From positions 1 through 63,162 of the forward strand of contig JAFXHG010000038.1 in assembly GCA_017536505.1 (NCBI GenBank): a stretch of 63,162 nucleotides of DNA, given 5' to 3'. The notes below the pieces were generated by a model. That model saw only the letters and a list, made by a program, of their open reading frames with translations. It did not search any database and was not told where the DNA came from. Below are positions 16,266 to 43,303 of this stretch, piece by piece. Made by a program: the position numbers and the translations under genes. Positions within the stretch are counted from its first letter, which is position 1; every line of letters starts with the position of its first letter. This DNA is from Bacilli bacterium (GTDB taxonomy: Bacteria > Bacillota_I > Bacilli_A > RF39 > UBA660).

Positions 16266-17396
16266 TTAATTTTTTACTTGAGTAGCATTACAAGCCACTC
16301 TCACATATGTTCTTTCTTCACCATTCCAATAATAACAAGCCTGGCCTGCTTTCCAAATTGTTTGTGAAACTGTAGAACCATCACTTTTTTGTACATTAAT
16401 ATCTTTATTAGAATCGACTAGTTCAATACAAACTCCACCTGATTTAATAGATTTAGGTTGATATCCATTTGAAAAATATTTTCCATTACAAGATGTTTGA
16501 TAATCATTAAGTTCTAAATCGTTAGAATCAGAATCACTAGCACTGCAAAAATCTGGAATTCCAGTTGTTAAAGGTGTACACATATCTATTCCTCCAACAA
16601 CTGTTTTATAATAAGTGCTTTTTTCACATTTATTATTTAAGAAACAATCTAAACAATTAGTAAAATTGTTATAATCCGTTTCATCATCAGCTACAATAGA
16701 TACTATAAATTGTACTATAGAAACAACAAAGAATACAAGTGCTGCAGCTATAATCTTTTTAATCAATGACGATTGTGCTTTTTTCATTTCATCTTCTTTT
16801 CCAGCAGACATCGCTTTTAAAAGAGTTATTAAACTTGTAAATATTAATATTAATGGTGTAGCTATTTTTAATAAATTAACCGCCATACTGATTATAGCAG
16901 GACCTTGCATTGGTATGTCACTAGCTCCTCCACAACCAACATACAACAAATTATCTACATTACAAAATCCTCCATTAGGCGCTGCATCATTATTTTCCCA
17001 AACACAAGCCACCTTTCCATTTGAACCAGAAAGTCTACAAGTCGTTTCTGTTTTATAATTATAGCACTGACTTGAACCAAGATTAGCTTCAAGTTTACTT
17101 GTTAAAGTTAAAGTTCCTTTTCCCTCTACATTAATTTCTGATTTACAATTTTTATCATCAGTAACTGCATCTTTAAACCAATCCTTATATACATTAGTAA
17201 CATCTTTTAACTGAACAGTGTCATTACTTTTATATACCTTATTTATTACAGTTACATCACCATTAATAGCATACTCAACTTCGTAAGTGTCATGCCCTAC
17301 AGCATATTTACAGGTTAATTTTGTTGCAGCATTTACTATATTAACAGCTAAAAAACATACTAACAAAGTAAATATTAATAATCTTATTTTTTTCAT
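16266..17396 (-). CDS. Secreted Cys-rich protein with an internal VirB2/TrbC-like pilin domain
   Basis: Signal peptide; two-TM hairpin with KAMSAGKEDEMKKAQSSLIKKII loop and CLDCF, shared with the pilins at 40-43 kb. Confidence 0.75.
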   Translation of the reverse strand: MKKIRLLIFTLLVCFLAVNIVNAATKLTCKYAVGHDTYEVEYAINGDVTVINKVYKSNDTVQLKDVTNVYKDWFKDAVTDDKNCKSEINVEGKGTLTLTSKLEANLGSSQCYNYKTETTCRLSGSNGKVACVWENNDAAPNGGFCNVDNLLYVGCGGASDIPMQGPAIISMAVNLLKIATPLILIFTSLITLLKAMSAGKEDEMKKAQSSLIKKIIAAALVFFVVSIVQFIVSIVADDETDYNNFTNCLDCFLNNKCEKSTYYKTVVGGIDMCTPLTTGIPDFCSASDSDSNDLELNDYQTSCNGKYFSNGYQPKSIKSGGVCIELVDSNKDINVQKSDGSTVSQTIWKAGQACYYWNGEERTYVRVACNATQVKN

Positions 17397-17956
17397 ATAA
17401 TTTCTCCTATATCTCCATTTTTTATTAGATGAGCATTGGCATCATCTGTATCTATGTGTAATTCGAAAAATGCTTTATCACTTACCTTAAGATGTACATT
17501 ATTTATTATTCCACCTTTTTCACCATTTATTTTAACACTCACCATATCTCTACCTTCAAGTCCATACATACTAACTTGATTAGGAAGTATATGTATATGT
17601 CTTGATGGAATAATACAACCTTCTTCTATTTCTACAACTCCATTAGGTCCTATTATAGTTATTCCAATACTACCTTCTAAATCACCAGAATCCCTAACTG
17701 GTGGATTAATACCTAATTTATATGCATCAGTTTTACTAATTTCCACTTGAGTATAAGATCTAAGTGGACCTAATACTCTAACATTGTCTATTTGTGATTT
17801 AGTAGTTTTTATAGTAACTAAAGAAGTAGATGCAAATTGCAATGGTTGAGTTAAATCATTCTTCTTTTCTAATTTAAAATCATTACCAAATAAAATTTTT
17901 AAATGTTCTTCAGTTAAATGAACATGTCTATTTGATACTCCTATACTAACTTTCAT
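17393..17956 (-). CDS. pduL: Phosphate propanoyl/acyltransferase PduL
   Basis: VSNRHVHL, QVEISKTD, RHIH, HIDTDDANA. Confidence 0.93.
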   Translation of the reverse strand: MKVSIGVSNRHVHLTEEHLKILFGNDFKLEKKNDLTQPLQFASTSLVTIKTTKSQIDNVRVLGPLRSYTQVEISKTDAYKLGINPPVRDSGDLEGSIGITIIGPNGVVEIEEGCIIPSRHIHILPNQVSMYGLEGRDMVSVKINGEKGGIINNVHLKVSDKAFFELHIDTDDANAHLIKNGDIGEII

Positions 17957-17977
17957 ATTCTCACCAAAATTATTATA

Positions 17978-18006
17978 GCATATTTTCTTAAATTTTAAAA
18001 TATATT
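17978..18006 (+). promoter_or_regulatory. Putative sigma-E promoter of gerQ
   Basis: GCATA-N16-AATATATT resembles ATA-N16-18-CATAcanT; gerQ is sigma-E controlled in Bacillus. Confidence 0.4.
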
Positions 18007-18025
18007 TTAAAGAAAGGATGATTTT

Positions 18026-18400
18026 ATGAATAATAATTATTTGAATAACAATTCTAATTTTCCTGGAACACCAATATATTCAGGAAATATAGCTACACCT
18101 AATCAAAGTATGACAAATACTTCTATGAATGAATATATACCAGATGAACAATCGTATATTGAAAATATTCTAAGAGTTAATAAAGGAAAAAGAGTATCCG
18201 TTTATCAATCTTTTGCAGATGCAGGTGAATGGAAGGATAGAATATTCACTGGAATTATAGAACAATCAGGTAGAGATCATATTATTTTAAGCGATCCAAA
18301 TACAGGTAATTGGTATTTACTTTTAATGATTTATGTTAATTTTATAAAGTTTGATGAAGAAATAAATACTGTAGAACAATTTTATCCACAAAAAGGATAA
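18026..18400 (+). CDS. gerQ: Spore coat protein GerQ
   Basis: EQSYIENILRVNKGK...GIIEQSGRDHIILSDP.TG.WYLLLMIY. Confidence 0.9.
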   Translation: MNNNYLNNNSNFPGTPIYSGNIATPNQSMTNTSMNEYIPDEQSYIENILRVNKGKRVSVYQSFADAGEWKDRIFTGIIEQSGRDHIILSDPNTGNWYLLLMIYVNFIKFDEEINTVEQFYPQKG

Positions 18401-18444
18401 AAACTATTGATTGATTTATTTGGATTTGCTATAATGGTCATAAG

Positions 18445-18996: not shown

Positions 18997-19000
18997 TTCC

Positions 19001-19426: not shown

Positions 19427-19447
19427 ATTATCACCATATAAAGTATA

Positions 19448-24216: not shown

Positions 24217-24486
24217 TTATAAATCTATAATTCCACATCCATTTGCTGCAAACCCCATTTTATCAAGCACAAATTCTATTATAAATGGTATTATGAATAT
24301 TAATGCACATATTATTAATCTTTTTATAAAATGTCCTTGTGCCTTTTTCATTGCATCATCCTTATTTGATGATAATGCTTTTATAAAATCTAATATACCA
24401 AATATTATTACTATTACTGGTATTAAATATTTTGCCCACTTGATTATGTTTGCTATAAAATGTATTAGTTTTTGAGAAAATCCACA
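24217..24486. repeat. Direct repeat copy 1 (pilin-domain coding region)
   Basis: Aligns without gaps to 25302-25571 (offset 1085 bp) with visibly high nucleotide identity. Confidence 0.85.
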
Positions 24487-25233
24487 AGGCCCATATCCTT
24501 GAATAATTTCTAAAGATTCATCTATCGCCTTAATATCATTTTCCATATCATACAAACATCGCTTTAAGCAAGGATCACCATAGTATGTTCTTTCTAATAC
24601 ATCGCCACATAAAGTTTTTAATTGATTCAAAGACGTATTATACTGATTTAATTTAATCGCTTTTTCTTCTGGAGTACTATTTGCATAATCAGTAAAAATT
24701 TCTGATATATCATATATTATATTATCATAACTCTCACATTGATAAATTAATTGTTCGGGTGTCAACTTTTGTTCAGGCACATAAGGATAACAATGAATTG
24801 AATCCCCACCAAAAACATATTCCCATATATAAAATTTATTTTCTTCTGGTAATTGAGAATAATTATCATATATCATAAACATTCCAGTACTAAATGCATG
24901 CGTGAAATCAAAATGGAGGTATGAACACACATATAAAGTTGAAACCCATTTATCACCTAGCAAATAATCTCCACTATCAGAATAGTACAAAGTAGTTTCG
25001 TACCACTTATCCCAAATATCAGGAATACTATAATCTTTAATAATATAACTTCTATAAGTTTTTGTATTAGTTCCAAACATTGTATAATTATCTTTATCTA
25101 CTACAATATAAAAGTCACTACCTAGCTTTGCATTAATATATTTCATAGTGTTAGATGCTTTTACGTTTGAAAAAGACAAACACAAAAACAAAACTAATAC
25201 AATATAAATTATACCTTTTTTTATTGTTTTCAT
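24217..25233 (-). CDS. Secreted protein with a C-terminal VirB2/TrbC-like pilin domain
   Basis: Likely start MKTIKK after GGAG; signal peptide, Cys-rich middle, KALSSNKDDAMKKAQGHFIKRL two-TM tail. Confidence 0.75.
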   Translation of the reverse strand: MKTIKKGIIYIVLVLFLCLSFSNVKASNTMKYINAKLGSDFYIVVDKDNYTMFGTNTKTYRSYIIKDYSIPDIWDKWYETTLYYSDSGDYLLGDKWVSTLYVCSYLHFDFTHAFSTGMFMIYDNYSQLPEENKFYIWEYVFGGDSIHCYPYVPEQKLTPEQLIYQCESYDNIIYDISEIFTDYANSTPEEKAIKLNQYNTSLNQLKTLCGDVLERTYYGDPCLKRCLYDMENDIKAIDESLEIIQGYGPCGFSQKLIHFIANIIKWAKYLIPVIVIIFGILDFIKALSSNKDDAMKKAQGHFIKRLIICALIFIIPFIIEFVLDKMGFAANGCGIIDL

Positions 25234-25301
25234 AAAAAGCCATCTCCATGATATATTATACATAAAAATTAATAAAAAGTAAATAATCAAAAGAAAAGGA
25301 A

Positions 25302-25571
25302 TTATAAATCTATAATTCCACATCCATTTGCTGCAAATCCCATTTTTTCAAGTATAAATTCTACTATAAATGGTATTATGAATATTATCGCACATATTAT
25401 TAATCTTTTTATAAAATTACTTTGTGCTTTTTTCATTGCATCATCCTTATCTGATGATAATGCTTTTATAAAATCTAATATTCCAAATATCATAACTATT
25501 ACAGGTACTAAATATTTTCCCCATTTTACTATGTTTGCTATAAATAAAACTAATTTTTGAGAAAAACCACA
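25302..25571. repeat. Direct repeat copy 2 (pilin-domain coding region)
   Basis: Matches 24217-24486. Confidence 0.85.
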
Positions 25572-26594
25572 ATTATTTTGACCAGTTGTCATCTCTGATA
25601 TTTGATCTATTTTATCTCCTACTTGTAAACACTTATCTATACAATGTCTTTCTGAATCAACATAATCAAAATTTTTTAAAATACTATCACATTGTTTTCT
25701 AACAACTTCTAACTTGTCATCTATTATTATTTTATTTGTCATCAAACAATTAATATCATCAGAGCTACATTTATTATAATCAATTATATATTGATCTAAT
25801 AATTTAATATTCATATCTGCTAGTCTACAATCTATATTAATTTTTGAATATTCGCCATCTTCTGGATAGCTATATTTATAACAAGATATATCTCTATATC
25901 CAAGAAGCAATTCATTATCACTTGCAACTAGGTCCCAAATTAAATTTCCAGCACCCCCAACTACTGAACAAACAAGGTCGACACCACCTTCTACAAAAGG
26001 TATACCATCGCCTAAACTACATATCCAACTGTCATTTGCTGATTCTGCCCCATCTGTAAAAGAAGAAGCAAATGATCCTCCTAGTTTATCTGACCAATCG
26101 TTATTATATTTTTCTTGGCCCATTATGTGTAATTCTTTATTATCAAATTGAAAAAGAGAATAAGAATTTTCAACATGTTGATTAAAATAATTCGTCATAT
26201 CAATATACCCTAGTGAAGCTATATGTACAAGAGAATCCATTGTTGCCCCAAATGAATTAAGCAAATTATTTAACGAAGGCAATTCAACTCCCCACTCTGT
26301 TTTCTCACAAAGATAAACTGTTTCTGGACAAAAATATTCATTTAATGCCTTTTTTAATTCCTCTTGATCTATTTTAACTTCTGATTCTGTATACATTTCA
26401 GTTCCACTATGCGTTAAAATACTAGTATGATGATACCACTGGTCTGCTAACCCTTTATAATCATAATCAACATTACCATTATTATAAAAAATTTTTAATC
26501 CATCACCATAATCACAAGTCATGTTTTCTGCAAAAACAGTTTTAGGAAAAACCATTAATATGAAAATTATTAATATTATTAATTTTTTTCGCAT
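25302..26594 (-). CDS. Secreted protein with a C-terminal VirB2/TrbC-like pilin domain
   Basis: Signal peptide ending VFA, Cys-rich body, KALSSDKDDAMKKAQSNFIKRL tail nearly identical to the neighbour. Confidence 0.78.
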   Translation of the reverse strand: MRKKLIILIIFILMVFPKTVFAENMTCDYGDGLKIFYNNGNVDYDYKGLADQWYHHTSILTHSGTEMYTESEVKIDQEELKKALNEYFCPETVYLCEKTEWGVELPSLNNLLNSFGATMDSLVHIASLGYIDMTNYFNQHVENSYSLFQFDNKELHIMGQEKYNNDWSDKLGGSFASSFTDGAESANDSWICSLGDGIPFVEGGVDLVCSVVGGAGNLIWDLVASDNELLLGYRDISCYKYSYPEDGEYSKINIDCRLADMNIKLLDQYIIDYNKCSSDDINCLMTNKIIIDDKLEVVRKQCDSILKNFDYVDSERHCIDKCLQVGDKIDQISEMTTGQNNCGFSQKLVLFIANIVKWGKYLVPVIVMIFGILDFIKALSSDKDDAMKKAQSNFIKRLIICAIIFIIPFIVEFILEKMGFAANGCGIIDL

Positions 26595-31287: not shown

Positions 31288-31779
31288 CTATATTTCCACA
31301 GTATAATCATCTAAATAGACTTCATATTCCATTACACTACTTATTTTAAAAATATATTTATTTCCATCTTTTGTATATATAGTATAAATATCTCTATCAC
31401 TATTTATACTATATCTATCAATAGTCATATTATTATAATTAAGAGAATTAATATAATTTATAAAATTATCGACAGTTCCAAATTTTAAATTTCTATAATC
31501 TACATTTAATAATTTATAAGCATAATTTATATCAGTATTTAGATGTGAATTAAAATCATTAAAATAAATACTAGCCATTTGTTCATCAGATATATTTATA
31601 ACGGAGTATTCATTAACACCATAAGTTTTGGGGGTCATTATATAATCCTCACCATCTAAATAAGACTCATTATATATACTTTTACTGGCTAAGTATTCTC
31701 TTAGAAAATATGCTGACATTATTACAATAAATACCAGAAATAATAATAATGTATATTTATGTTTCTTTATAAATTCCAT
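31288..31779 (-). CDS. Bitopic membrane protein (candidate VirB8-like subunit)
   Basis: Single N-terminal TM, AYKLLNVDYR motif, position in the T4SS operon. Confidence 0.45.
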   Translation of the reverse strand: MEFIKKHKYTLLLFLVFIVIMSAYFLREYLASKSIYNESYLDGEDYIMTPKTYGVNEYSVINISDEQMASIYFNDFNSHLNTDINYAYKLLNVDYRNLKFGTVDNFINYINSLNYNNMTIDRYSINSDRDIYTIYTKDGNKYIFKISSVMEYEVYLDDYTVEI

Positions 31780-31790
31780 AATATCATCTC

Positions 31791-32297
31791 CTATTTAAAC
31801 ATAGCACCATTATATGGTTCTATTTCAAATGTCATATTTTCTTCATTTAATATAACAATTATATAAAAATCTTTTTTGTTAGATATTGAATCAATAGTTT
31901 CTTCTTGAGTACTTCCTTTTACATAATACTTATAAATACTTTTAGAAATTCTTTGAACGTACATTTTAATTGGAATAAATGTTTTTACTCCGTTGATTGA
32001 TTCAACATAATTATATATATTACTAGAATTAATAGAGTTACTATTCTTATATTCACTGCTTAATAATATTAATAATTTTTCAGTATCTCTACTCGATAAA
32101 TAATTCATATACTTAGATATACAAGATGAAACAGTATAAAATCTACTATTATCTTTTACAAGTGATATAGTTTCAGTATCTATTTTTTCTTCTATAATTT
32201 CATTTTTATTAAAAAATATTTCATATATTCCTATAAACAATACTGCAATAACAATAACTATAGTTAAAATTTTTTTGTTTCTTTCCTCTTTATTCAT
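31791..32297 (-). CDS. Bitopic membrane protein (candidate VirB8-like subunit)
   Basis: Likely start MNKEER after AGGTGA; single TM, LLILLSSEYK motif similar to the neighbour. Confidence 0.45.
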   Translation of the reverse strand: MNKEERNKKILTIVIVIAVLFIGIYEIFFNKNEIIEEKIDTETISLVKDNSRFYTVSSCISKYMNYLSSRDTEKLLILLSSEYKNSNSINSSNIYNYVESINGVKTFIPIKMYVQRISKSIYKYYVKGSTQEETIDSISNKKDFYIIVILNEENMTFEIEPYNGAMFK

Positions 32298-32305
32298 TTT
32301 ATCAC

Positions 32306-34963
32306 CTATATACCAAATATATCGTATCTCATTTGTACTTTTTTCTTTATTTGCCAAGCAGTATAATCATTTTGTTCACAAACTGTAGTTTTTGATTCAA
32401 CTGGACAATTATTAGTTGCAGTCGATGATGCACAAGTTGAAACACTAGAACAATATGACTGACCATATATTAAATTCAAATAATAACAACCACCAGAACC
32501 TGAACTACCAGGATTAAATCTATATGTTCCTACCCAAGAATATAAAGATTGCATTCCTTCTAATGTACCTGGCATACCATGCCCACTTGAATCACATTTA
32601 GCAGATAATCTTTCATTATATCTATTAGTTATTGTTTCAGCATGTTTGCCATACTCTCCATATGAACTAAGCACATTGGCATATGCAGCAATACCTTCGC
32701 TTAAAGAATCATATATTCCTCCAGAATTGCAACCTTGCCCATTAGCTATTCCAATTCCCCAATAATTGTTAGTATATTGGCAGGCAGGACTCAATTCCCA
32801 TCCTTCTTCAGTTCCAGCTGTTACTACAACCAATTCTGGATTTACATTATTAGCTAAAGAAGCAGTATATACTTCTTCAGCATTTAAAACAAAATTGTTA
32901 TAAAAGCCTTTATTTTGTGTTCTTTCATAATAGTTATTCATCTTTGCAACAAATTCTTCTTTTGATAATGTAGTTGTTGTAAGTGAAAAGTTGTTCCCAC
33001 TTCCATATGACATTGGTCGTGGATTATTAGGATCAACATATTCCAATGGATATACTCTACTTGATTTTGAATCAGAACCAAGTCTAACTTCAAAGTGTAA
33101 ATGGGTTGCAGTAGACTGACCACTATGCCCCATTTTTCCTATAACTTGTCCCTGATCTACCACATCACCGGCTCTAACAGTTATACTATTTTGAGCAAGA
33201 TGTGCATACAAAGTATAAGTTCCATCACTATGCTTTATTTTTACATAATTTCCAAAACCTCCGCCATCTTCATTTTCTAGATGACCATTATCACGATATT
33301 GAGTTTGGTATTCGCTTGTTGGGTATACAACTTCTCCAGATTTTACGGCAATTACATTTATAACTCCAGGACCATTTCCTGCATTACCAATATCTATTCC
33401 ACCATGTTCAGACACTCTAAAAGATTCTTTATCTCCAAAATCTGAAGTAATTTTAATACTTTGTGGAGTGCCTTTTGCGTATAAAATTCCGTTTATTTCT
33501 TCAGTCTCTTTACTTCCAATAGGCCACCAAAAAGAATTATTAGATACAGGAATTATTTCTTCAACTTCTGTATAACCACCAGCTAAATCCTCATATTGTT
33601 CCTTCGCATCATAAATTTGAACAATTAAATTATTTACAGGTGTTTCATTTTTCGATTCAATAAACTTATATTTTTCAGAAACAGTTCCCAATCTATGACC
33701 TTCTAAAAAATATTTTTTTTCTAAAAAGCCTTTTAAAAACTCCTTATATTGTTCTTTTTCTACAAGTTCATAACAAGCACCATCGATTGTTCCGGGACAA
33801 CTACGTTCATCTACTCTTTTTACCATATTTTGCGCTAAAATTTCTATATCACGAGCACTAGTTTTAGATAAAACTACCCTAGACCAATTCTTATTATAGT
33901 TAAAATCTTCATTTTTTTCTTTGCGAGTTACCTTAAAACCTTTTATATTTGCCTCAAAAACTTCACTTCTATCAGTATCTTGAACAGTTAATACTGACAT
34001 TATTAATGGCATATCTAAATCAACATTATAATTCTTATCATTACTATAATATCTTTGTATATAAAACAGTTTAAAAAAGAATTTATATACAGTATCCATA
34101 TCATAAGTACCATCACCATAACTATTAACACCAGAATAAAAATCTTCTAATTCTTTTAAATCTGCCTCATTATATTCTCTGTATTTAGTAGAATCAATAA
34201 AATTTTCTTTAGTTAATTTAGTACTATAGATATTGATATCATCAATAAAAACATCGTCATAATAAATATTCCAAGTTAAATCCCCTGCTGATCCATCATC
34301 AACATTTTCATCTGTTATTTCATCATCTAAACCTTCTGAACCGTTTTCTCTAATAGCTTCATCTGCTTTTTCATTAGAAACTTCATCTGCTTGTCCAAGA
34401 CCAATTACACTTAAAAATGTTTGAGAAGCAGCAACAATTAAACACATAAAAACTACTACTACCATAACAGGTGTGAAAGCTACCAAAGCAATTTTTAAAA
34501 CTTTAGCAGAAGCTTTAAAAGTTACTTCAGCTCCATCAGTAGTTTTATCTTCAACTTCTCTTCTATCTAATGTATTATTTTGTTTACCTTCTGCAGTTGC
34601 ATTAGTTTGAACACTTGATTTACCTAAAGAAGAAAGTCCATCCTTCTTTTTTAATGCATTCCCTATCCTATCACTAGTACCACTTTCTGCCATTTTATTT
34701 GATGCTTTTTGGATCAATCTACCCCCAGGAGTAAATTTATTAGACCTATTCATAGCCTTACCTAGTTTCATTGAGGCTTTTCCACCAGTTAATTTATCAG
34801 CAGTTTTTACAGCTGTTCCTATTGCTGCGATTGTTGGATCCCCAGTTTTACTAGCAACGTCAGCTAAAACTCTTACATTATTAGCATTGTTGGCAACATT
34901 ACGTTGTTTTTGAGTTTGTGCTTTTGTCATTTGATTTTCATCTGGAACATATTGTTCTTCCAT
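32306..34963 (-). CDS. Membrane-anchored peptidoglycan hydrolase (M23 peptidase plus lysozyme/glucosaminidase-like domain), VirB1 analogue
   Basis: HGGIDIG and HLHFEVR M23 zinc motifs, YAHL; downstream VNPELVV.TAGTE...NNYWGIG. Confidence 0.85.
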   Translation of the reverse strand: MEEQYVPDENQMTKAQTQKQRNVANNANNVRVLADVASKTGDPTIAAIGTAVKTADKLTGGKASMKLGKAMNRSNKFTPGGRLIQKASNKMAESGTSDRIGNALKKKDGLSSLGKSSVQTNATAEGKQNNTLDRREVEDKTTDGAEVTFKASAKVLKIALVAFTPVMVVVVFMCLIVAASQTFLSVIGLGQADEVSNEKADEAIRENGSEGLDDEITDENVDDGSAGDLTWNIYYDDVFIDDINIYSTKLTKENFIDSTKYREYNEADLKELEDFYSGVNSYGDGTYDMDTVYKFFFKLFYIQRYYSNDKNYNVDLDMPLIMSVLTVQDTDRSEVFEANIKGFKVTRKEKNEDFNYNKNWSRVVLSKTSARDIEILAQNMVKRVDERSCPGTIDGACYELVEKEQYKEFLKGFLEKKYFLEGHRLGTVSEKYKFIESKNETPVNNLIVQIYDAKEQYEDLAGGYTEVEEIIPVSNNSFWWPIGSKETEEINGILYAKGTPQSIKITSDFGDKESFRVSEHGGIDIGNAGNGPGVINVIAVKSGEVVYPTSEYQTQYRDNGHLENEDGGGFGNYVKIKHSDGTYTLYAHLAQNSITVRAGDVVDQGQVIGKMGHSGQSTATHLHFEVRLGSDSKSSRVYPLEYVDPNNPRPMSYGSGNNFSLTTTTLSKEEFVAKMNNYYERTQNKGFYNNFVLNAEEVYTASLANNVNPELVVVTAGTEEGWELSPACQYTNNYWGIGIANGQGCNSGGIYDSLSEGIAAYANVLSSYGEYGKHAETITNRYNERLSAKCDSSGHGMPGTLEGMQSLYSWVGTYRFNPGSSGSGGCYYLNLIYGQSYCSSVSTCASSTATNNCPVESKTTVCEQNDYTAWQIKKKVQMRYDIFGI

Positions 34964-34983: not shown

Positions 34984-36768
34984 TTATAGTCCTCCACCAC
35001 TACCAAATGATTCTAATTCTTCATCTGATACAATTACATTAATACGCATTCTTCTGCTACCGCATACAAATAATGCTTCACCTTGTTGATATTGTTTTAT
35101 ACTTTCTTTTTCATTATCATTTAAATCTATTAATTTAGCTAAATCATCAACAGCTTGCTTCTTTAACCCCATCACTAGATAGTAAGAAGCATTATCAAAT
35201 ATAGCTTTTCCTTGAGTTATAACACTAGGATCACTAAAATCTGTAGGTTGTTGAGTAATTATTATTGTTCCTGTGTTATATTTTCTTGCACGTCTTTGAA
35301 TTTGTGCTAAGAAATCTGCACCTAAAGTATTTCCTCCACTTAATAAAACATGCGCTTCATCAACCATCATAACAGTGTTTATAGAACTGTTTAAAGTTAA
35401 TCCCCATGCATATTTTAATATGTTAAAGAACAAAGCATTTCTAATATTATTATCAGCATTCATTAATTCTTTAATGTTAAATACTATAAAATTACTTCTT
35501 GGTTTTATAGTTGTATGACCATCAAAATAATATTTAAGTTCTTTTACAATTGGTCTTATCTTTATTTCAAGTCTTTCAAGAACATCTTTTTCTTGAGTTT
35601 TTTCAGGCATAGATAAAATTCTACCTTTTATAGTTGCATAAACATCTTTAAAAGTAGGATAATCTTCAGATTTGAATTTAGTAAAATCTGACTCAAAATC
35701 TATACCAAAACGTTTATATGTTTCTTGTACTACTTCACTAAACATATTAACAACATCTTCTTCAATACTTGGATCATAGTATTTTAAGAAGGCTTTTATT
35801 GTTTGTAATGTACGAGTTAAAATAGTATAACCTAATCCTTGTTTTATCTCTTCTTCATCAGCATCTACTATTACTTCAAGAGGATTTATCATACCAAATG
35901 ATCCACCCTTACCTAAACTAATAAAGTCTCCATCAAAAGAATCAGTCATTTCTTCTAATTCTCCTTCTGGATCAATAACAACTATTTGATTATTATTTCT
36001 TATATTACTTCTTAAAAGTAATTTAGCAGCTGTAGACTTACCACTACCAGAAGTACCTAATATAATCATATTAGCATTATTACGATTGTGCTCTTTTTTT
36101 ATTTGATATAAGAATTGATTAAATAATATAACCCCACCAGAGAAATCTATTCCAAGTAAAGTAGATAATCCTGGGTCTTTAATACTATCAAATATAAATG
36201 GATACATAGCTGCCATAGTAGGAGCTGGAATAGGTGTTCCTATTCTATCTTCAATATCTTGTTTACCATATATTGGTAATATAGATTTAAGTACCTTATC
36301 TTGTTCAAAACGAAGAGGTACAGCTCTCATTTCCATAGCTTCTAAATAATTTTTAACTTGTAATTTTTTAGCATCTAACTCCTCTTTAGTATCAGCAGTA
36401 ATCATAACATGCATTTGAAAATCATAGATTTTTGATTGACTTGCAGCAAGTTCGCTTATAAACATCTCTAATGATTCATAATCTTGACGTATTCTTTCCT
36501 GAATAGTCTTATCTTTTTCATCTTGATATCTTTGTTTTAAATCAGCAAGCTCCTTATTAAGCATTTTACTCATACTACTAAAAGGAAGTGGTATATGTTT
36601 AATAACAACTTTAATTCCTGACATACTTGTTAAACTACTTAAATATCCAGGATAAATAAATTTTGGATAACTTATAATAGTTAAAATACAAGCATGTTTA
36701 TCACTAATAATAAATTCGCTAGGTTTAAACTCCAATCCTTTTGGAGCAATTTGACTCTTAATATCCAT
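34984..36768 (-). CDS. virB4: VirB4/TraE-like secretion ATPase
   Basis: GTSGSGKS, IDPEGE, INPL, VDEAH, RARKY, TQQP. Confidence 0.92.
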   Translation of the reverse strand: MDIKSQIAPKGLEFKPSEFIISDKHACILTIISYPKFIYPGYLSSLTSMSGIKVVIKHIPLPFSSMSKMLNKELADLKQRYQDEKDKTIQERIRQDYESLEMFISELAASQSKIYDFQMHVMITADTKEELDAKKLQVKNYLEAMEMRAVPLRFEQDKVLKSILPIYGKQDIEDRIGTPIPAPTMAAMYPFIFDSIKDPGLSTLLGIDFSGGVILFNQFLYQIKKEHNRNNANMIILGTSGSGKSTAAKLLLRSNIRNNNQIVVIDPEGELEEMTDSFDGDFISLGKGGSFGMINPLEVIVDADEEEIKQGLGYTILTRTLQTIKAFLKYYDPSIEEDVVNMFSEVVQETYKRFGIDFESDFTKFKSEDYPTFKDVYATIKGRILSMPEKTQEKDVLERLEIKIRPIVKELKYYFDGHTTIKPRSNFIVFNIKELMNADNNIRNALFFNILKYAWGLTLNSSINTVMMVDEAHVLLSGGNTLGADFLAQIQRRARKYNTGTIIITQQPTDFSDPSVITQGKAIFDNASYYLVMGLKKQAVDDLAKLIDLNDNEKESIKQYQQGEALFVCGSRRMRINVIVSDEELESFGSGGGL

Positions 36769-37307
36769 TATGCTAACACCGTCCCAAAAGTAGTAGTTTG
36801 TCCACCATTTAAGAAATTATCTAAAATCATTCTTAAATCGTCATTATTAGTTTGAAAAGCAGTAAGTCCCGCACTAGCAAAATTATTAATTAAAGTACGA
36901 ACTCTTTTTTGAATTAAATCATTATCTTTCTCTTTAAATAGTAAAAAGTATTCTGTATCTACTACATTGTTATTCATAAACATATTTGCCTTATTTAAAT
37001 CTTCTAAAATAAGTTTTCTTTTTTTATTATCGCTTGTTTGATTATATAGTAATTGTAATTGAGATAAGTAAACATTTATATCTACCGGTCTATCAGCAAC
37101 TACAATCCAAAATTCATAATCAATAGCATTATAAACGTTTTTTAAATTCATAATAATAGCATCTTGCATACTTTGATCTAGTATAAAAATATTTCTTGGC
37201 ATTATTTTAACACCAGTAACTTTTTGATTATTGTCTAATACAATAACACCATTAGTAATATTTTTTACTGGAACATCAGTATACTTACTTTTTATCTCTT
37301 TCGCCAT
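36768..37307 (-). CDS. T4SS accessory protein (resembles a detached VirB4 N-terminal region)
   Basis: Likely start MAKEIK; lies between prgI and virB4 with overlapping codons. Confidence 0.6.
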   Translation of the reverse strand: MAKEIKSKYTDVPVKNITNGVIVLDNNQKVTGVKIMPRNIFILDQSMQDAIIMNLKNVYNAIDYEFWIVVADRPVDINVYLSQLQLLYNQTSDNKKRKLILEDLNKANMFMNNNVVDTEYFLLFKEKDNDLIQKRVRTLINNFASAGLTAFQTNNDDLRMILDNFLNGGQTTTFGTVLA

Positions 37308-37602
37308 TATCAAAACACCAACCCTTCCATATATATTTTTGTCTTGTTGAATAAAATTCCCAAGCATTTTTTATTACAGTCCTTACATTGTGGTAATTTG
37401 GTACAGGAAGTACCAAAAAACCACATATAAGTCCTGGTGAAATAGTTAATACAGCTACCCAAAATTCACTAACTGGTAGAATCATCATTAGTAAAAATGA
37501 TATACCTATTCCACATCCAAATATAATTAAATCAATTGTATTAAACACACCAAATATAAGCATACTCTTTTTTGAGTTTGCAGGTATTAAATATGAATTC
37601 AT
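37285..37602 (-). CDS. PrgI/VirB3-like membrane protein
   Basis: YLIP...IFG.F...DL plus two TMs plus QKYIW; upstream of virB4. Confidence 0.72.
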   Translation of the reverse strand: MNSYLIPANSKKSMLIFGVFNTIDLIIFGCGIGISFLLMMILPVSEFWVAVLTISPGLICGFLVLPVPNYHNVRTVIKNAWEFYSTRQKYIWKGWCFDNGERDKK

Positions 37603-37625: not shown

Positions 37626-39911
37626 TTAAGAACCATTTCCAATTCTGCGCGTTGCTGCAGCATCTCTGTTCGTTTTTCTTCTTTCTTTTTCTTCATTAAG
37701 TTCTTTTTCAGTGGCTTCAATGATGGCTTTAGCGTCTTCATAACTAACTTCTTTACCATCAATAATAACTTTTTTATCAGTTTGAATTTTTCTAATTTGG
37801 TCATCAATATCAGAAATTAATCTTTCTTCTGGAGCAATTTCTCTTTCTATATCACCAACAGTGCCTTTTGACTGCCCATATTGAGTATGAATAGCTGAAC
37901 CATCTGATGTTGATTCAATTCCTAAAACTTTTGCTGCATCCACATAAGTTTTATAAGCATTTTGGAATGTTTTATCATCTTTTCCATCAGAAAATACACC
38001 TTCAGAAGCTTGTGACATATATTCTTTCATTCCTGAATCGGTTAACCAAGTATTAGCAGCATGTTGAGCTTCTGCAGCCATTTCAGGTGTCACAGTAACC
38101 GATTTTCCATTAACTTTAACTCTTCTACCTATATTATTTTCTAAATATTCAGCATTGGCTTTTAGTGTTAGATATCTTTTACCAATATCTCCACCATTTC
38201 CTGCTTCTATTTCAGATTTTGCTCTACTTTCCATAGATGATATTGCATCCTGCATTCTTTTATGATCCGAAATACTTCTTTTGCTATCAGCTATGCTTTC
38301 TTGAATTCTTTTTTTCTCAGCTTCCTTAGTTTTTACATCTCTCTCTACTGAGGTTGCAGCATCATTTAGATTTTTCTTATTAACTCTTAAAGCTGTAGCT
38401 CTCTTTTCTAAATCAGCATCATCTAGACCATATCTACTAGATAATACAGCTGCCCTAGAACCCCAGAAACCTGCACCATTTATTCTAGCTTCTCTTAATT
38501 TTCTATTTACTTCTGCTTGTCTAGCAAGTCCACCAGAATATCCTTTATTTGCTGCAGCTCCTCTTGCTGCTCCAGTAAATGCAGAGCCTATTCTTCCAAA
38601 GAAACCATGTCCACCAACAGCACCAGCTACCATTCCTCCAGCAGCTCCTGTAATTCTTTTGCCACCCATAGCTTGTTCTTCAAATTTCTTTAATGGATTT
38701 AAGAAGAATTTACCATCACCATCTAACTTAATTCCTAATCCTTCAAGTATTTTTGGTAAATCTTTAGCAAACATTAATGCCCCAATTATAATAAATATTT
38801 TTATATATGGATTTACTTGATATGTTCCATCTACTATATCCACTAAAGTTAAATCAGCTACTTTTTCAATTATATATATAGCAAAATAAAGAGCCAATAT
38901 ACGAATAAATAAACTTAAATATGTTTTAAAACATAATTGATACCATTTTTTAAACATTCCATCTTTACCACTTTTTGGATCGACATAAGATAAAATTGGG
39001 ATTGGTGCAATTAATTGTAAAAATGCTAACTTTATACTACGTAATGCAATATCCATACAGAATGATATAAGTAATAATACAACAACAACACCTACAACTG
39101 TACTAAAAACATATTTGTAATCCATTACAAACTGTGAATTATCTTTAACAGTAGCTACTGCAATTTCAGTTCTAAACATTAAACCTAGATTTCTATTTTC
39201 AACCCCTACAACATAATTTTGCAAAGCCATCATAGAAAATTTATCAGTTCCAGCAAGAGTGGCCATCGTTTTGCCAAGTGATGGATCTTGTTCATAAGTA
39301 CCATCTGTTTTTAGTCCGGAACATTTAGGATTAAATTTTGTAACAGATGTTTGTTTCCCATTTACTGTTTTTGTTTCTTGTACAGTAAGTTCTACACATT
39401 CTTGAAATTCGGTTATAGATGTGTTAGGAGAGAAAAATGCACTCATTGTAATAAATGCCATATCATCTCCCGCACTATTTATAAAATCACTTGAAGTATT
39501 ATTATCTCCGCCACCGAATATCAACGTCCCTAATGTATTATCCTCTAATATTATAGTTTGTAACCTATATGCCATATTAAATATATAAGGAGTTAATATT
39601 AATAACCCTAAACTTATTATTATATTCATCGATAATTTAGAAATACCTTTACTCTTATCAGAAAAATCATCAGGATTAACTATATAGGTAATTAAAGATA
39701 AAGTAACTTTAAATATCATAAAAATAGCTAACAATTTGTATATTCTATCTGCCATGTCTAATATATCAGCTTGAGTAAGAACAGAAGTTCTTGCTATTGC
39801 TATTAATAGATTATATATAGATGATATCCCATTATATACAACTTGATCTATTCCAAAGAAAAATTGTTTCATCAATGTTTGAAACCACATATTTATTGAT
39901 AATACGTACAT
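37626..39911 (-). CDS. VirB6/TrbL-like polytopic channel protein with a long cytoplasmic tail
   Basis: Multiple TMs, RSIKLAFLQLIAPIPILSY, KKWYQ, then Gly/Ala-rich and coiled-coil tail. Confidence 0.8.
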   Translation of the reverse strand: MYVLSINMWFQTLMKQFFFGIDQVVYNGISSIYNLLIAIARTSVLTQADILDMADRIYKLLAIFMIFKVTLSLITYIVNPDDFSDKSKGISKLSMNIIISLGLLILTPYIFNMAYRLQTIILEDNTLGTLIFGGGDNNTSSDFINSAGDDMAFITMSAFFSPNTSITEFQECVELTVQETKTVNGKQTSVTKFNPKCSGLKTDGTYEQDPSLGKTMATLAGTDKFSMMALQNYVVGVENRNLGLMFRTEIAVATVKDNSQFVMDYKYVFSTVVGVVVVLLLISFCMDIALRSIKLAFLQLIAPIPILSYVDPKSGKDGMFKKWYQLCFKTYLSLFIRILALYFAIYIIEKVADLTLVDIVDGTYQVNPYIKIFIIIGALMFAKDLPKILEGLGIKLDGDGKFFLNPLKKFEEQAMGGKRITGAAGGMVAGAVGGHGFFGRIGSAFTGAARGAAANKGYSGGLARQAEVNRKLREARINGAGFWGSRAAVLSSRYGLDDADLEKRATALRVNKKNLNDAATSVERDVKTKEAEKKRIQESIADSKRSISDHKRMQDAISSMESRAKSEIEAGNGGDIGKRYLTLKANAEYLENNIGRRVKVNGKSVTVTPEMAAEAQHAANTWLTDSGMKEYMSQASEGVFSDGKDDKTFQNAYKTYVDAAKVLGIESTSDGSAIHTQYGQSKGTVGDIEREIAPEERLISDIDDQIRKIQTDKKVIIDGKEVSYEDAKAIIEATEKELNEEKERRKTNRDAAATRRIGNGS

Positions 39912-39969: not shown

Positions 39970-40001
39970 AAAAAAAAAACAATTAATCAATGACTAATTG
40001 T
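39970..40001 (-). terminator. Terminator after the short pilin gene
   Basis: Minus strand ACAATTAGTC-ATT-GATTAATTGT followed by a long T run. Confidence 0.55.
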
Positions 40002-40009
40002 CGCTTTTA

Positions 40010-40399
40010 TTACATATCAAGAGTTTCAGATGTTGATATACAAGCATTATCTGCTATTTTACCATTTACAAAACAATTAAAGCATTCAGAAATGTTCTTA
40101 TCTCCAGAAATAAAGTTAATTAAAATTTGAACTATTTGTATTACAAAGAACACAATAACAGCAGCTATTACTCTTTTTATAAATGTTTGTTGACCTTTTT
40201 TTATTTCATCTTCTTTAGAAGCTACTACAGCTTTACCTAAATCAAGCATACCAAAAATTATAAGTAAAATAGGTACAACTATTTTTATAATTAAAATTGC
40301 AGTTGAAACTAAATATGGAAAAGTACCTGAAAATTCAAAGCCTAAACTACCACATTTATAAAGCCCACTCATTTCAAAATTATCTACTAAAAACATCAT
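40010..40399 (-). CDS. VirB2/TrbC-like pilin (candidate major subunit)
   Basis: Two-TM hairpin with KAVVASKEDEIKKGQQTFIKRV, CFNCF; own promoter and terminator. Confidence 0.78.
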   Translation of the reverse strand: MMFLVDNFEMSGLYKCGSLGFEFSGTFPYLVSTAILIIKIVVPILLIIFGMLDLGKAVVASKEDEIKKGQQTFIKRVIAAVIVFFVIQIVQILINFISGDKNISECFNCFVNGKIADNACISTSETLDM

Positions 40400-40423
40400 A
40401 TAAATATCCTCCTAACTATATTT

Positions 40424-40452
40424 ATTATATCTTTATTTATAGAAAAAGTCAA
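40424..40452 (-). promoter_or_regulatory. Sigma-A promoter of the short pilin gene
   Basis: TTGACT-N17-TATAAT on the minus strand. Confidence 0.7.
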
Positions 40453-40454
40453 CC

Positions 40455-41567
40455 CTACTTTAGAACATAAGGTTCATCAACGGTACCTTTTCCAGAAGTT
40501 ATTTTTTCATTGGTATCAATATATATAACGATGTTATAATTTTGATACTTACCAGCTTCTTGACTTCTTATAACTCCACTACTTAAATAATACACTCCAT
40601 ATGTATTATCAGATACAGCATTTACTGTCCAAGTCATTAAATTTAATTCTTTTAAATAATTATAATTTCTACAAGATCTTGAATAAATACTAGTACAATC
40701 AACATCTAAACTTGCTCTAGCAAAATCGTTTATATCTATTAAAGAGATAACTTGATTCGCTAACTTGTTTGTACAATCATAATTTCCTATAGAACCATCT
40801 TCTAAACTTCTTGAATCTACACATACATCTTTAGAAACAATATGTTTTCTAGCATTTTCAGAAATAATCTTATTATTGCTATAATTCTCAATAAGTTTTT
40901 TTAAAACAGTACTATCAGCATATATATTCTTACCAGAAATATCTTCTGTTTCTACATTATATTTATTATCCCAATATTCATCTAAAGATTCTGATTCTGT
41001 TTTTATAAGTTTTGCTACGCCTTTTTCATCAATGTTCATTATTCTATAATTTTTACCGAAAAATTCAATATAATTTTTAACTTGGTCTCCTTTATAAACA
41101 TAATAATTTCCATCTTTATAAAGTCCAGAACCACTAGTAGTTAAATCATTCATTAAAACACTATTTAGTGTTTTTGTTTTATATTCATCGCATTCTAAAC
41201 TAACTATATAATTTAAAAATCCACCTTCGTTTTTTTCAATAGTAGAACCATTTTTTCTAACAGTCACACTACCTTTACAAGAATCATCACCTAGTAAATC
41301 TTCTGTAGATTTTATGTACTCACCTTTAACTAATTCATCTAAATTTACTACTTTAACTTCTGATTCTTTTTTAGGTAATCCACCATTTTCTTTAAAATAT
41401 TTTTCAGCTGAAGATATCATTTTTTCTTCAAATTTTTCTGGTGTAATTTTAGAATTACCACACCCTTGAATAATTGCTAAAAAAATTATTATTACTATCG
41501 GCAACAACAAAATTATACCAACTATTAATAATATTTTTTTGTCTATTTTTTTTAAAGTTTCAACCAT
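40455..41567 (-). CDS. Membrane-anchored Cys-rich surface protein (pilin-like globular domain)
   Basis: N-terminal TM, LDELVKGEYI...C.GSVTV...L.C, ends GKGTVDEPY. Confidence 0.55.
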   Translation of the reverse strand: MVETLKKIDKKILLIVGIILLLPIVIIIFLAIIQGCGNSKITPEKFEEKMISSAEKYFKENGGLPKKESEVKVVNLDELVKGEYIKSTEDLLGDDSCKGSVTVRKNGSTIEKNEGGFLNYIVSLECDEYKTKTLNSVLMNDLTTSGSGLYKDGNYYVYKGDQVKNYIEFFGKNYRIMNIDEKGVAKLIKTESESLDEYWDNKYNVETEDISGKNIYADSTVLKKLIENYSNNKIISENARKHIVSKDVCVDSRSLEDGSIGNYDCTNKLANQVISLIDINDFARASLDVDCTSIYSRSCRNYNYLKELNLMTWTVNAVSDNTYGVYYLSSGVIRSQEAGKYQNYNIVIYIDTNEKITSGKGTVDEPYVLK

Positions 41568-41578
41568 AAATCCTCCTA

Positions 41579-42070
41579 TTATTTATCTTTAACGCACACT
41601 GTTTTAGTATCATTTGGATGCATATTATCAGGACAAACCTTATTTTTTTCATCCTTAAATTTATATGTACAATCTCCATTTAAAAAGCATTTACTACAAG
41701 TAGCGATGTTTGACTTATCGTTGTCATCAGCTACAAAACTAATAATTAATTGAACAATCGTAAATACTAAGAAAACCAACGCACCTGATATCAATCTTTT
41801 TATAAATATTTGTTGACCTTTTTTTATCTCATCTTCTTTTCCTGCTGTTATTCCTTTCATTAAATCAAGCATTCCCATTATAACAAGTAAAACAGGTACA
41901 ACTATTTTTATTACTGTTACAATAGTACTAACAATATTAGGTATTTTTTCATCAATAATAGCACCCTTTATTGAATTTTCACAAGATGCTATATTAGCTG
42001 CAAAAACAGGATTAGCAACTAAAATCATTAAACATAAAACAATAATTGTAAATACTACTTTCTTTTTCAT
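41579..42070 (-). CDS. VirB2/TrbC-like pilin
   Basis: Likely start MKKKVV; signal peptide (PVFA), KGITAGKEDEIKKGQQIFIKRL, CSKCF. Confidence 0.78.
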   Translation of the reverse strand: MKKKVVFTIIVLCLMILVANPVFAANIASCENSIKGAIIDEKIPNIVSTIVTVIKIVVPVLLVIMGMLDLMKGITAGKEDEIKKGQQIFIKRLISGALVFLVFTIVQLIISFVADDNDKSNIATCSKCFLNGDCTYKFKDEKNKVCPDNMHPNDTKTVCVKDK

Positions 42071-42080
42071 TTTACTCCTC

Positions 42081-42869
42081 CTAACATTCATTACTTACAA
42101 AGCAATCTATACAATCAACAATATTTGATACATTCGTGTCAGCAACTATACTTATTAAAAATTTAACTACTATTACCACAAAGAATATTATAGCGCCTAA
42201 TACTAATCTTTTTACAAATATTTTTTGGCCTTTTTTCATCTCGTCTTCTTTTCCTGCTGTAATCCCTTTAAATAAATCAATTGACCCCATTATAACTAAA
42301 ATAATTGGCACTGCAATTTGTATTACATTAACAATCAAACTAGTCAACTTTGGAATTTGTTTAGGTATGTTAGTAACAGCACCTTCTCCATTACCACAAT
42401 TAACTTTATTTATAGAAGATTTGTTAGATGATTTTAGTTCAAAAGCTCCAACAGTTCCTTCCTTAACTTCATAAAGTTCTTTCTGAGAAGTACCAAGAGA
42501 TAAATACAAACTAGGCGCACAATTCTCCCCTTCCAAAACTTCAAATTTTATCAAAATTTCCGAAGGAGAATAGTTATAACTCTTTTTTTTACAATAATCT
42601 CTTACTTGCTGATCACTAAAATGAGATGCATAAATTTTTAATTTTTCACTACATTCTGAAAATGGAGTTATAGTATAAAAAATTTTTTCTGCTTCCATGT
42701 AATTATCATGTAGTATTAACTCTAAACTTAAAGTTTTAGAATATTCCACTTCCCATTCATTTATAGATTTGGCAGTATAATTACAAACAATTCGTTCTTT
42801 TGCATCTACATTACTTAAAAACATTAAAGTAGCAAACAATATAAAAATATATGTTAAAATCTTCTTCAT
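42081..42869 (-). CDS. VirB2/TrbC-like pilin with an N-terminal extension
   Basis: Signal peptide, Cys-containing insert, KGITAGKEDEMKKGQKIFVKRL, CIDCF. Confidence 0.78.
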   Translation of the reverse strand: MKKILTYIFILFATLMFLSNVDAKERIVCNYTAKSINEWEVEYSKTLSLELILHDNYMEAEKIFYTITPFSECSEKLKIYASHFSDQQVRDYCKKKSYNYSPSEILIKFEVLEGENCAPSLYLSLGTSQKELYEVKEGTVGAFELKSSNKSSINKVNCGNGEGAVTNIPKQIPKLTSLIVNVIQIAVPIILVIMGSIDLFKGITAGKEDEMKKGQKIFVKRLVLGAIIFFVVIVVKFLISIVADTNVSNIVDCIDCFVSNEC

Positions 42870-42880
42870 ATAATCACCTA

Positions 42881-43303
42881 TTAATCACATTCATTTTTTA
42901 TAAAACACTCTGCACAATCTATTATATCACTTGATGTGTTATCTGCAACTACACTTATTAAAAGTTTTACAACGATAAAAACCAAGAAAACTAAAACAGC
43001 ATATATAAGTCTTTTAATGAACAATTGTTGACCTTTTTTTATTTCATCATCTTTTCCTGCTGTTATGGCTTTCATAAAATCTAATGACCCCATTATTACA
43101 AGCACAATAGGAACAGCTATTTGAATTATTGTATAAATAATACTAATAACTTTTGGCACCATTGTAGGTATTTTAGTTAACATACCATTACCACAACTAG
43201 TAACAGCAGATGTGTAATTATTATACGTTTCTGCACCAACAATGTCAATAAAAATTAAATTAATTAACAAAATAAAACTAACAATTAAAACCTTTTTCTT
43301 CAT
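42881..43303 (-). CDS. VirB2/TrbC-like pilin
   Basis: Signal peptide, KAITAGKDDEIKKGQQLFIKRL, CAECF. Confidence 0.78.
   Translation of the reverse strand: MKKKVLIVSFILLINLIFIDIVGAETYNNYTSAVTSCGNGMLTKIPTMVPKVISIIYTIIQIAVPIVLVIMGSLDFMKAITAGKDDEIKKGQQLFIKRLIYAVLVFLVFIVVKLLISVVADNTSSDIIDCAECFIKNECD

Follow-up and report, generated by a model that had tools for sequence, protein, structure and literature searches.

Pilin-like hairpin proteins with large cysteine-rich ectodomains in the chromosomal type IV secretion system of a family of Bacilli

The window analysed here is the whole 63,162-nucleotide stretch of contig JAFXHG010000038.1 from the Bacilli bacterium assembly GCA_017536505.1 (genome G000), and corresponds to the first 63 kb of a 195-kb contig (C36). 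Seven of its minus-strand open reading frames (ORFs), located between positions 16266 and 43303, were found to encode proteins with a common two-helix hairpin block of about 100 residues. Situated between these hairpin copies are the genes for VirD4, a hydrolase, VirB4, a VirB3-like protein and VirB6 of a type IV secretion system (T4SS). On balance, we consider it probable that the seven genes encode paralogous pilin-like subunits of this one T4SS, which would be a chromosomal, vertically inherited, monoderm system resembling those of the integrative and conjugative elements (ICEs) of Mollicutes. The assembly consists of 38 contigs totalling 1.19 Mb, with ~25% GC and 90% completeness, and the minus strand holds nearly all genes of the window.

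The counts reported below were obtained from a genus sample of 24 genomes and from a phylum sample of 400 genomes that was evenly drawn. Synteny and identity comparisons at the genus level encompassed the species of the window and seven other species (eight in total). Genomes G037 and G030 are sampled genomes from families other than that of the window.

The hairpin family, its distribution and its evolution

A first-pass annotation of this DNA had assigned seven VirB2/TrbC-like pilin domains to these ORFs on account of a shared loop motif, and both the genes and the motif were recovered as described. In the aligned block, a conserved cysteine is followed by helix 1, a lysine-rich loop with five or six Lys/Arg residues, helix 2, and a cysteine-bearing tail. 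The loop motif K[AG]xx[AS]xK[ED]D[EA][IM]KK[AG]Qxx[FL][IV]K[RK] was present in 7/7 copies and had zero other matches in the six-frame translation of the 38-contig genome. A hidden Markov model (HMM) of the domain, whose genome-wide use the annotation had proposed for counting copies, returned the same seven, all inside the window, with E-values between 1e-33 and 1e-42 (124 bits for the copy at 16266). An eighth match (C25:53177-53662; E 0.0098) was rejected as a zinc-ribbon membrane protein with another layout. The domains of the seven paralogues are 31–57% identical, and the DNA encoding the hairpin is detectable as a repeat at 61–74% identity. A Sec-type leader was recognised by eye in six of the seven copies, the exception being copy C. 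The layout of VirB2-type pilins, namely a cleavable leader, two hydrophobic helices, a short basic loop and both ends outside, is matched by the family. The copies, named by type, are as follows:

16266..17396, minus strand: type A copy, 376 aa; signal peptide, β-rich and Cys-rich N-ectodomain, hairpin at 153–249, and 127-aa Cys-rich C-ectodomain
24217..25323, minus strand: type B copy 1; hairpin C-terminal
25302..26594, minus strand: type B copy 2, 430 aa; signal peptide, ~310-aa Cys-rich ectodomain, and C-terminal hairpin
40010..40399, minus strand: type C copy, 129 aa; no signal peptide; directly adjoins the gene for VirB6
41579..42091, minus strand: type D3 copy, 170 aa; signal peptide, hairpin, and 38-aa Cys-rich C-terminal tail
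42081..42869, minus strand: type D2 copy, 262 aa; signal peptide, ~125-aa ectodomain, and hairpin
42881..43303, minus strand: type D1 copy, 140 aa; signal peptide, short β-hairpin with conserved Cys, two long helices, and Cys-rich C-terminal helix

The length range of 129–430 aa given by the annotation holds for the ORFs as called mechanically, but the start of the 24217 gene is probably the ATG at 25233 instead of 25323, as this codon is preceded by GGAG ~9 nt upstream and yields a signal peptide and a protein of ~338 aa. For the copy at 40010, AGGAGG lies 8 nt ahead of the ATG and the stop-to-stop frame spans just 133 aa, which leaves no room for a signal peptide; the orthologues of type C (125–133 aa) lack one as well in 8/8 species. 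A region behind the hairpin, which had been ascribed to the 16266 protein, is indeed present there, though not there alone, given the tail of the 41579 protein. Three copies are positioned among housekeeping genes, as had been noted, with 16266 between a PduL-like gene and that of a U32 peptidase, and with 24217 and 25302 beside RNase R.

Confident models computed with AlphaFold2 (AF2) for two copies comprised two helices of ~35 residues flanked by β-rich outer parts, together with a signal helix. The model of the 16266 protein, with hairpin helices at 164–197 and 201–235, reached a mean predicted local distance difference test score (pLDDT) of 84.3, and that of the 42881 protein, with helices at 48–82, 85–119 and 124–136, reached 78.5. 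The Atlas model of the 25302 protein was poor (pLDDT 0.48).

The proteins are rich in cysteine, as the annotation had stated, with contents of 2.7–4.5%; across 1114 ORFs of the genome, the median is 0.96% and the 95th percentile 2.86%. Its description of their extracellular regions as unrelated applies to most of them: the ectodomains of the seven are not detectably alike, save for 16266 and 42081, which have a signal peptide and a short N-terminal stretch in common (E 6e-5), and for 24217 and 25302, which match weakly (E 0.009). No fold was assigned to the ectodomains of the window; whole-model searches with the 376-aa model were dominated by the hairpin. The Pfam scan of the 25302 protein gave no family, and its Atlas search, which started from the poor model, provided only low-score leads (≤0.82). 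A scan of 69 relatives, all but three of them 240 aa or longer, left 66 without a Pfam domain at E ≤ 1e-5; those with a domain carried a dockerin, a Flg_new repeat and an alpha/beta-hydrolase, respectively. In one Atlas cluster, Big_2 and NlpC/P60 domains are fused to the hairpin.

The domain was found only in genomes with a VirB4 match. Within the genus, 24/24 genomes contain the domain, mostly with 5–8 matches apiece, and 24/24 encode a VirB4 that is 90–97% identical to that of the window. The phylum sample had the domain in 20/400 genomes, including all 17 sampled genera of the family with 2–11 copies each and, beyond the family, G037 plus weak matches in G150 and G419. All 20 domain-positive genomes belong to the 128 with a VirB4 match; the remaining 108 carry other VirB4 types and no domain. 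The annotation had named equally common copies in genomes lacking VirB4/VirD4 as an outcome that would speak against its proposal, but none of the VirB4-less genomes of this sample had the hairpin domain. An orthologous VirB4 (at least 72% identity) was found in exactly the 17 family genomes (72–83%) and in G037, whose gene order is Tad genes, two small hairpins, VirB6, VirB3 and VirB4. The same neighbourhood was retrieved in 77 loci from named gut metagenome-assembled genomes, with labels including Bacilli, Erysipelotrichaceae, Tenericutes and Ca. Pelethosoma. In the other 16 genera of the family, short forms occur in 16/16 and long forms, defined as open frames of 250 aa or more, in 11/16, so that five have only short forms. 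Synteny with the RNase R, RmuC and PduL-like genes is preserved, and the T4SS is chromosomal and lineage-conserved and not a mobile element. Outside the sample, the 42881 protein had 706 homologues in a set of 5.8 billion proteins, and the hairpin profile matched 9576 representative clusters at E ≤ 0.001.

Across the eight species of the genus, the copies occupy four conserved positions (8/8 species): A beside the PduL-like gene, B beside RNase R, C beside VirB6, and D1–D3 in tandem. A maximum-likelihood tree of 48 hairpins from these species groups them by genomic position, with support of 100/100 for A, 100/100 for B, and 99/99 for A + D; two of its rows are wrongly labelled and correspond to a truncated B copy of G012 and to the D3 orthologue of G015. 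Between species, identity is 94% for VirB4, 90% for the VirB4 N-domain ORF, 83% for VirD4 and 66–94% for housekeeping proteins; it is 53% for VirB6, 52% for the hydrolase and 28–70% for the hairpin proteins. In the latter, the hairpin is 62–66% identical, the N-ectodomains 19–30%, and the C-ectodomain 45%.

Type B is duplicated in tandem in a species-specific manner in G000 and G010. The hairpins of these pairs are 82% (24217/25302; hairpin plus tail) and 97% identical, compared with 26% and 29% for the N-parts. At the DNA level, 24195–24487 and 25280–25572 match over 293 nt with 89% identity, covering the hairpin-coding 3' ends, and the remainder is barely alignable. This mosaic suggests local gene conversion or ectodomain replacement. 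As near-identical tandem hairpins stand behind unrelated ectodomains, the hairpin behaves as a module, which supports the modular tag that the annotation had envisaged, and its variable location in 149 representative relatives (114–519 aa; hairpin N-terminal, central or C-terminal) is in line with this. The further proposal of a variable surface repertoire fared worse: judging from the sequence comparisons, in which the tree groups the copies by genomic position, they are a fixed set of old, specialised and fast-diverging paralogues that are not shuffled.

Pilin subunits or another kind of hairpin protein

The proximity of the hairpin genes to the secretion machinery is matched by a weak relationship to a known pilin family. 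A six-frame search with the Pfam profile PF18895 (T4SS_pilin; gathering cut-off 26.6 bits) returned all seven copies at E ≤ 1, with 41579 above the cut-off (27.7 bits), and seven of the nine matches of the own genome at this level are the hairpin copies. A weak match at C36:104818-105000 was discarded, as it belongs to a VirB6/TrbL-like protein of a separate ICE and not to a hairpin copy. Among the best 149 representative relatives, 51 matched PF18895 at E ≤ 0.01, the top E-value being 9.5e-7, and the language-model neighbours include clusters that bear PF18895, one of which also bears TrbC. The profile itself exceeded the Pfam cut-off in 48/399 sampled genomes, and a VirB4 match lies no more than 8 kb away from 21 of its 22 best places, most of which are in genomes that use TGA as a sense codon.

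In the mechanism that we propose, each protein would be inserted into the membrane as a two-helix hairpin with both ends outside and the lysine-rich loop in the cytoplasm, and the two outer ends would probably be stapled to each other by the conserved cysteines that precede helix 1 and follow helix 2. Recognition by the VirB4/VirB6 machine would depend on the hairpin, chiefly on its loop, which would explain why the hairpin is conserved in all paralogues. A structural, VirB2-like role in a pilus-like or wall-spanning fibre would most likely fall to the small copies (C, D1 and D3). The large ones (A, B1, B2 and D2) would employ the same hairpin to position lineage-specific, fast-evolving, Cys-rich ectodomains on or at the fibre, in a role that may be likened to that of minor or tip pilins of other pilus systems. 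In this model, the paralogues would co-assemble, and the ectodomains might act in contact or adhesion, much like the adhesin or receptor domains suggested by the annotation.

Several results weigh against a pilin fibre. When hmmscan was applied to the proteins, 0/7 reached the PF18895 cut-off, the best scores being 24.5 bits (41579) and 19.1 bits, and none of the seven copies matched the TrbC/VirB2 profile PF04956 at E ≤ 1; the sole PF04956 match of the genome (E 0.09) is elsewhere on contig C36. When the family was aligned profile to profile (hhalign) with 15 unambiguous PF18895 members of Mollicutes and related genomes, the probability was 3.7% (E 0.012), although the weak alignment was nonetheless in register along the first transmembrane helix, the loop and the second transmembrane helix. 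Profile searches of PDB sequences retrieved no pilin, the best matches being unrelated transmembrane helices (E 0.19–0.7), and Foldseek searches of the PDB with both AF2 models gave no match at E ≤ 0.001; a further structural comparison (pdb_via) brought nothing more. With VIA-align, the Pyrobaculum conjugative pilin 8dft_A was found at Z 6.0 (rmsd 3.2; 93/112 residues) and Z 6.4 (92 residues) for the two models, with the most residues aligned among the rows with Z ≥ 6 and Z ≥ 6.3, respectively, and the Aeropyrum conjugative pilin 8dfu_B at Z 6.3; these archaeal pilins tie with unrelated helical hairpins, so the lists are non-discriminating. Ectodomains of 125–330 aa on every subunit would fit poorly into a helical filament of VirB2 type. 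Finally, no genes for VKOR, a DsbA-like protein (Thioredoxin_4) or DsbB were found in the 90%-complete genome, and disulfide stapling therefore lacks an identified catalyst. Because the PF18895 matches are mostly sub-threshold, the folds non-discriminating and the profile–profile similarity weak, the hairpin is best termed T4SS_pilin-like, that is, a putative weak relative of PF18895 rather than a proven VirB2 homologue. Accordingly, the VirB2/TrbC-like label of the first-pass annotation depends on sub-threshold PF18895 matches and finds no support from PF04956.

Some of these results provide grounds for regarding the hairpin as a membrane anchor or channel subunit at the VirB6/VirB4 complex, with the ectodomains displayed around the channel and no extruded filament, a scenario that we judge rather unlikely but to be taken seriously. 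It would accommodate the weak homology evidence for a pilin, and display at the surface would suit large ectodomains better than packing into a tight helical filament. Relatives with the hairpin fused to enzymes or binding modules (3/69 of those scanned, as well as the NlpC/P60 and Big_2 Atlas cluster) point the same way, as does the statement, in the pertinent passages of a December 2025 review (PMC12857230), that Gram-positive T4SSs outside Patescibacteria have no VirB2-type pilins or conjugative pili. However, an anchor for ectodomains does not account for the universal presence of small copies with nearly no ectodomain, which were found in all 16 other genera and as the only form in five of them. 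Moreover, monoderm archaea make pili from such hairpins according to the relevant part of PMC9905601, and extraction driven by VirB4 would equally need a conserved cytoplasmic loop.

An improbable explanation is that the copies are antigenically variable and interchangeable, and that variants keep arising through duplication and exchange, altering the surface so as to evade immunity or shift the host range, as in the Trw system of Bartonella. The high divergence of the ectodomains between species and the species-specific type B duplicates would be expected from it, and cassette exchange or local gene conversion could produce a mosaic of this kind, with unrelated ectodomains joined to a conserved hairpin. 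Yet types A, B, C and D are at the same positions in 8/8 species and form position-specific tree groups, and the architectures of the paralogues differ in the presence of a signal peptide and in the C-terminal or central placement of the hairpin. The search for repeats gave neither long inverted repeats nor switching cassettes of near-identical sequence; its best inverted pair spans 40 nt with 70% complementarity. Contigs from three studies, which possibly include the source sample, are identical to the window over 39654–44000 and yielded no usable variation between strains. Very improbable, in our view, is that the hairpin proteins belong to the adjacent Tad-like pilus, as parts or substrates of that machine, instead of to the T4SS. 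Three copies lie directly between a CpaE-like gene and the T4SS genes, and Tad-like genes accompany the T4SS in nearly all of the 77 related loci and in G037, so that co-occurrence cannot separate the two machines within the family. However, the leaders of the hairpin proteins are of Sec type or absent and not of class III, and the Tad-like locus has three pilin-like ORFs of its own. The PF18895 places mentioned above favour the T4SS as well, in a count that concerned nearby VirB4 alone. In G030, the hairpins are downstream of VirB4–VirD4–RmuC, and the 20-kb stretch examined there contained no match to the Tad-like proteins of the window.

The secretion locus and neighbouring genes

The T4SS and the Tad-like locus encompass the following features besides the hairpin copies:

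29213..31279, minus strand: VirD4/TraG coupling protein, 688 aa (PF02534, E 1.9e-56)
31288..32357, minus strand: two small single-transmembrane proteins, 163 aa and 188 aa, without Pfam or NCBIfam match; 46–48% identical between species
32306..34963, minus strand: cell-wall hydrolase, VirB1 analogue (M23, PF01551, E 4e-20; glucosaminidase-like, PF01832, E 4.6e-4)
34984..36768, minus strand: VirB4 ATPase, 594 aa (NF045975, E 1.6e-104)
36768..37602, minus strand: two small ORFs, 105 aa and 199 aa, corresponding to the VirB3-like and N-domain parts of the Mycoplasma ICE VirB4
37626..39911, minus strand: VirB6/TrbL-like channel protein, 761 aa (PF19597 TrbL_4, E 1.3e-7; MMCAP2_0566 family, E 3e-7)
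40455..41567, minus strand: membrane-anchored or secreted protein, 370 aa, between copy C and the D copies, without Pfam or NCBIfam match
43312..50570, minus strand: Tad-like pilus locus, upstream of the T4SS (PF00437, TIGR02788 and TIGR03177 matches)

Four hairpin copies are less than 7 kb from VirB4, and copy C abuts VirB6. VirB4 is distributed over three ORFs, which cover positions 2–94 (105 aa), 106–276 (199 aa) and 295–893 (594 aa) of the 894 of NF045975, and the same three-way split is found in G037 and G030. The two single-transmembrane proteins may be VirB8-like candidates, and the 370-aa protein is kept in 7/7 species with 49–69% identity. Next to VirD4, the window encodes RmuC, a DNA recombination protein, and a rhodanese (27743–29155), which are also near VirD4 in G030; this adjacency may point to a connection of the T4SS with DNA processing.

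Pfam scans of the ORFs of at least 85 aa revealed no relaxase in the window, although one of an unknown type is possible. In the genome, PF03432 was found only in a separate ICE, PF01076 only on contig C22, and PF02486 had zero matches. This ICE is a second, classical ICE-type T4SS at ~96–120 kb of contig C36, ~50 kb from the system of the window, and comprises genes for VirD4, a TrbL-like protein, PrgI, a 770-aa VirB4, a CHAP hydrolase, a MobA/VirD2 relaxase, DUF3801, DUF3846, Toprim and ParB, in addition to a 1199-aa thioester-SpaA adhesin. It contains zero copies of the hairpin family by the genome-wide HMM search.

The Tad-like locus encodes a TadA/VirB11-like ATPase, two polytopic membrane proteins, a CpaB-like protein and a DUF5411 protein. 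Its three pilin-like ORFs (45353–45607, 44836–45309 and 44323–44817) have short class-III-type leaders ending in Gly, and the first encodes a Cys-rich protein of 84 aa. Extracellular cysteine is abundant in the hairpin proteins, the Tad-like pilins and the tail of the hydrolase alike. Further upstream, the segment 50578–54970 encodes two possible further surface or adhesin components, one of 918 aa with three SpaA (prealbumin-like) domains and one of 532 aa that belongs to no known family. Sporulation-related genes are found at 18026–20350, with the spore coat protein GerQ identified by Pfam and YabP-, YabQ- and SpoVG-like proteins by eye; they thus occur in a genome of ~1.2 Mb, some relatives of which are labelled Tenericutes or Mycoplasmatota in the records.

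Relation to known systems and significance

The closest parallel is with the T4SS of Patescibacteria. The passages of a survey of the candidate phyla radiation (CPR) that deal with it (PMC12102498) describe a chromosomal, mostly relaxase-less T4SS with arrays of 2–11 VirB2-like pilins, and a six-gene array is reported for Ca. Southlakia epibionticum (PMC12102498, PMC12857230, in the parts concerned). Both systems are chromosomal, from monoderm organisms with reduced genomes, and have a monoderm-type core (VirB1-like, VirB3, VirB4, VirB6 and VirD4) with no relaxase in the cluster and 2–11 divergent hairpin paralogues per genome, in tandem or one gene apart. In either case, a type IV-like pilus system is also present and PF18895 is the profile that detects the hairpins. 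The differences are that the host is here a walled, Mollicutes-related lineage of Bacilli with sporulation genes, that the PF18895 matches are mostly sub-threshold, and that some copies are 15–25 kb away from the core among housekeeping genes. Moreover, ectodomains of 125–330 aa here precede the hairpin in several copies, and once also follow it, whereas the cited CPR passages mention none.

Archaea offer a structural parallel. As described in the corresponding part of PMC9905601, monoderm archaea build true pili from processed and unprocessed hairpin pilins. CedA1 (8dfu) and TedC (8dft), of the domesticated archaeal Ced and Ted T4SSs, are likewise two-helix hairpins encoded near VirB6- and VirB4-like genes in cells that lack an outer membrane. 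Signal peptidase cleaves one kind but not the other, which parallels types D and C. TedC also had the most residues aligned among the top rows for both AF2 models, the archaeal Z-scores being 6.0–6.4. By contrast, there is no sequence similarity, the Z-scores tie with unrelated hairpins, and the archaeal pilins have neither large ectodomains nor Cys clamps; a pilus has been demonstrated there, whereas it is proposed for the window.

The PF18895 proteins of Mollicutes ICEs (~100–125 aa) are encoded beside a VirB4 of Mbov_0397 type, which is the subfamily of the best NCBIfam match of the window VirB4, and they share the hairpin with an acidic and basic loop and the vicinity to VirB4 (21/22 best places at less than 8 kb). 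Unlike the window family, they are single-copy proteins of mobile elements without signal peptide, Cys motifs or ectodomains, and the profile–profile similarity is weak, as detailed above. The Bartonella Trw system, according to the passages of PMC12857230 that treat it, has several sequence-variable pilus-subunit genes per T4SS that are thought to serve binding and not transfer. However, it is a diderm system without VirD4, which the window system possesses, and its copies derive from recent tandem amplification, whereas the paralogues of the window are old and fixed in position. In the literature that was searched, which did not extend to the supplementary tables of the CPR survey, no account of such a T4SS hairpin system in Bacilli was found.

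Every sampled genus of this Bacilli family carries pilin-like hairpin proteins in multiple copies as part of a chromosomal T4SS. As far as the cited passages extend, this hairpin design, here with large ectodomains, has so far been reported in single-membrane bacteria from Patescibacteria only, and, according to the review cited above, that group is the one exception to the absence of VirB2 subunits from Gram-positive T4SSs (PMC12857230). The CPR survey, in the part available, gives VirB2-like pilins as absent from systems of the mating-pair formation class FATA (MPF-FATA; PMC12102498), and the occurrence of PF18895 proteins beside VirB4 in the sampled genomes of the phylum is at odds with this absence. 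If the hairpin proteins were mere membrane anchors, they would still represent a new and very large component family of monoderm T4SSs, with 9576 clusters.

The pilin reading can be extended to a broader picture, which we put forward as tentative and doubtful as a whole. This gut-dwelling family with small genomes would build a conjugative-type VirB2-like fibre through the Gram-positive wall, with the hairpin as universal loading module, and would combine structural subunits with subunits bearing exchangeable, fast-evolving, Cys-rich ectodomains. It would do so via a relaxase-less T4SS and alongside a Tad-like pilus, in order to contact host or neighbouring cells. Such a fibre would be the first pilus of this type in Bacillota and, taken together with the PF18895 proteins of Mollicutes ICEs, would suggest an ancestral presence of VirB2-like pilins in the monoderm MPF-FATA lineage instead of a Patescibacterial acquisition. 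If the hairpins are true pilins, the origin of the CPR pilin arrays becomes testable, and models of Gram-positive T4SSs will need a pilus-like element. The combination of hairpin and ectodomain would then lend itself to use as a natural display scaffold and could help to explain how uncultured gut bacteria with reduced genomes attach to their partners.

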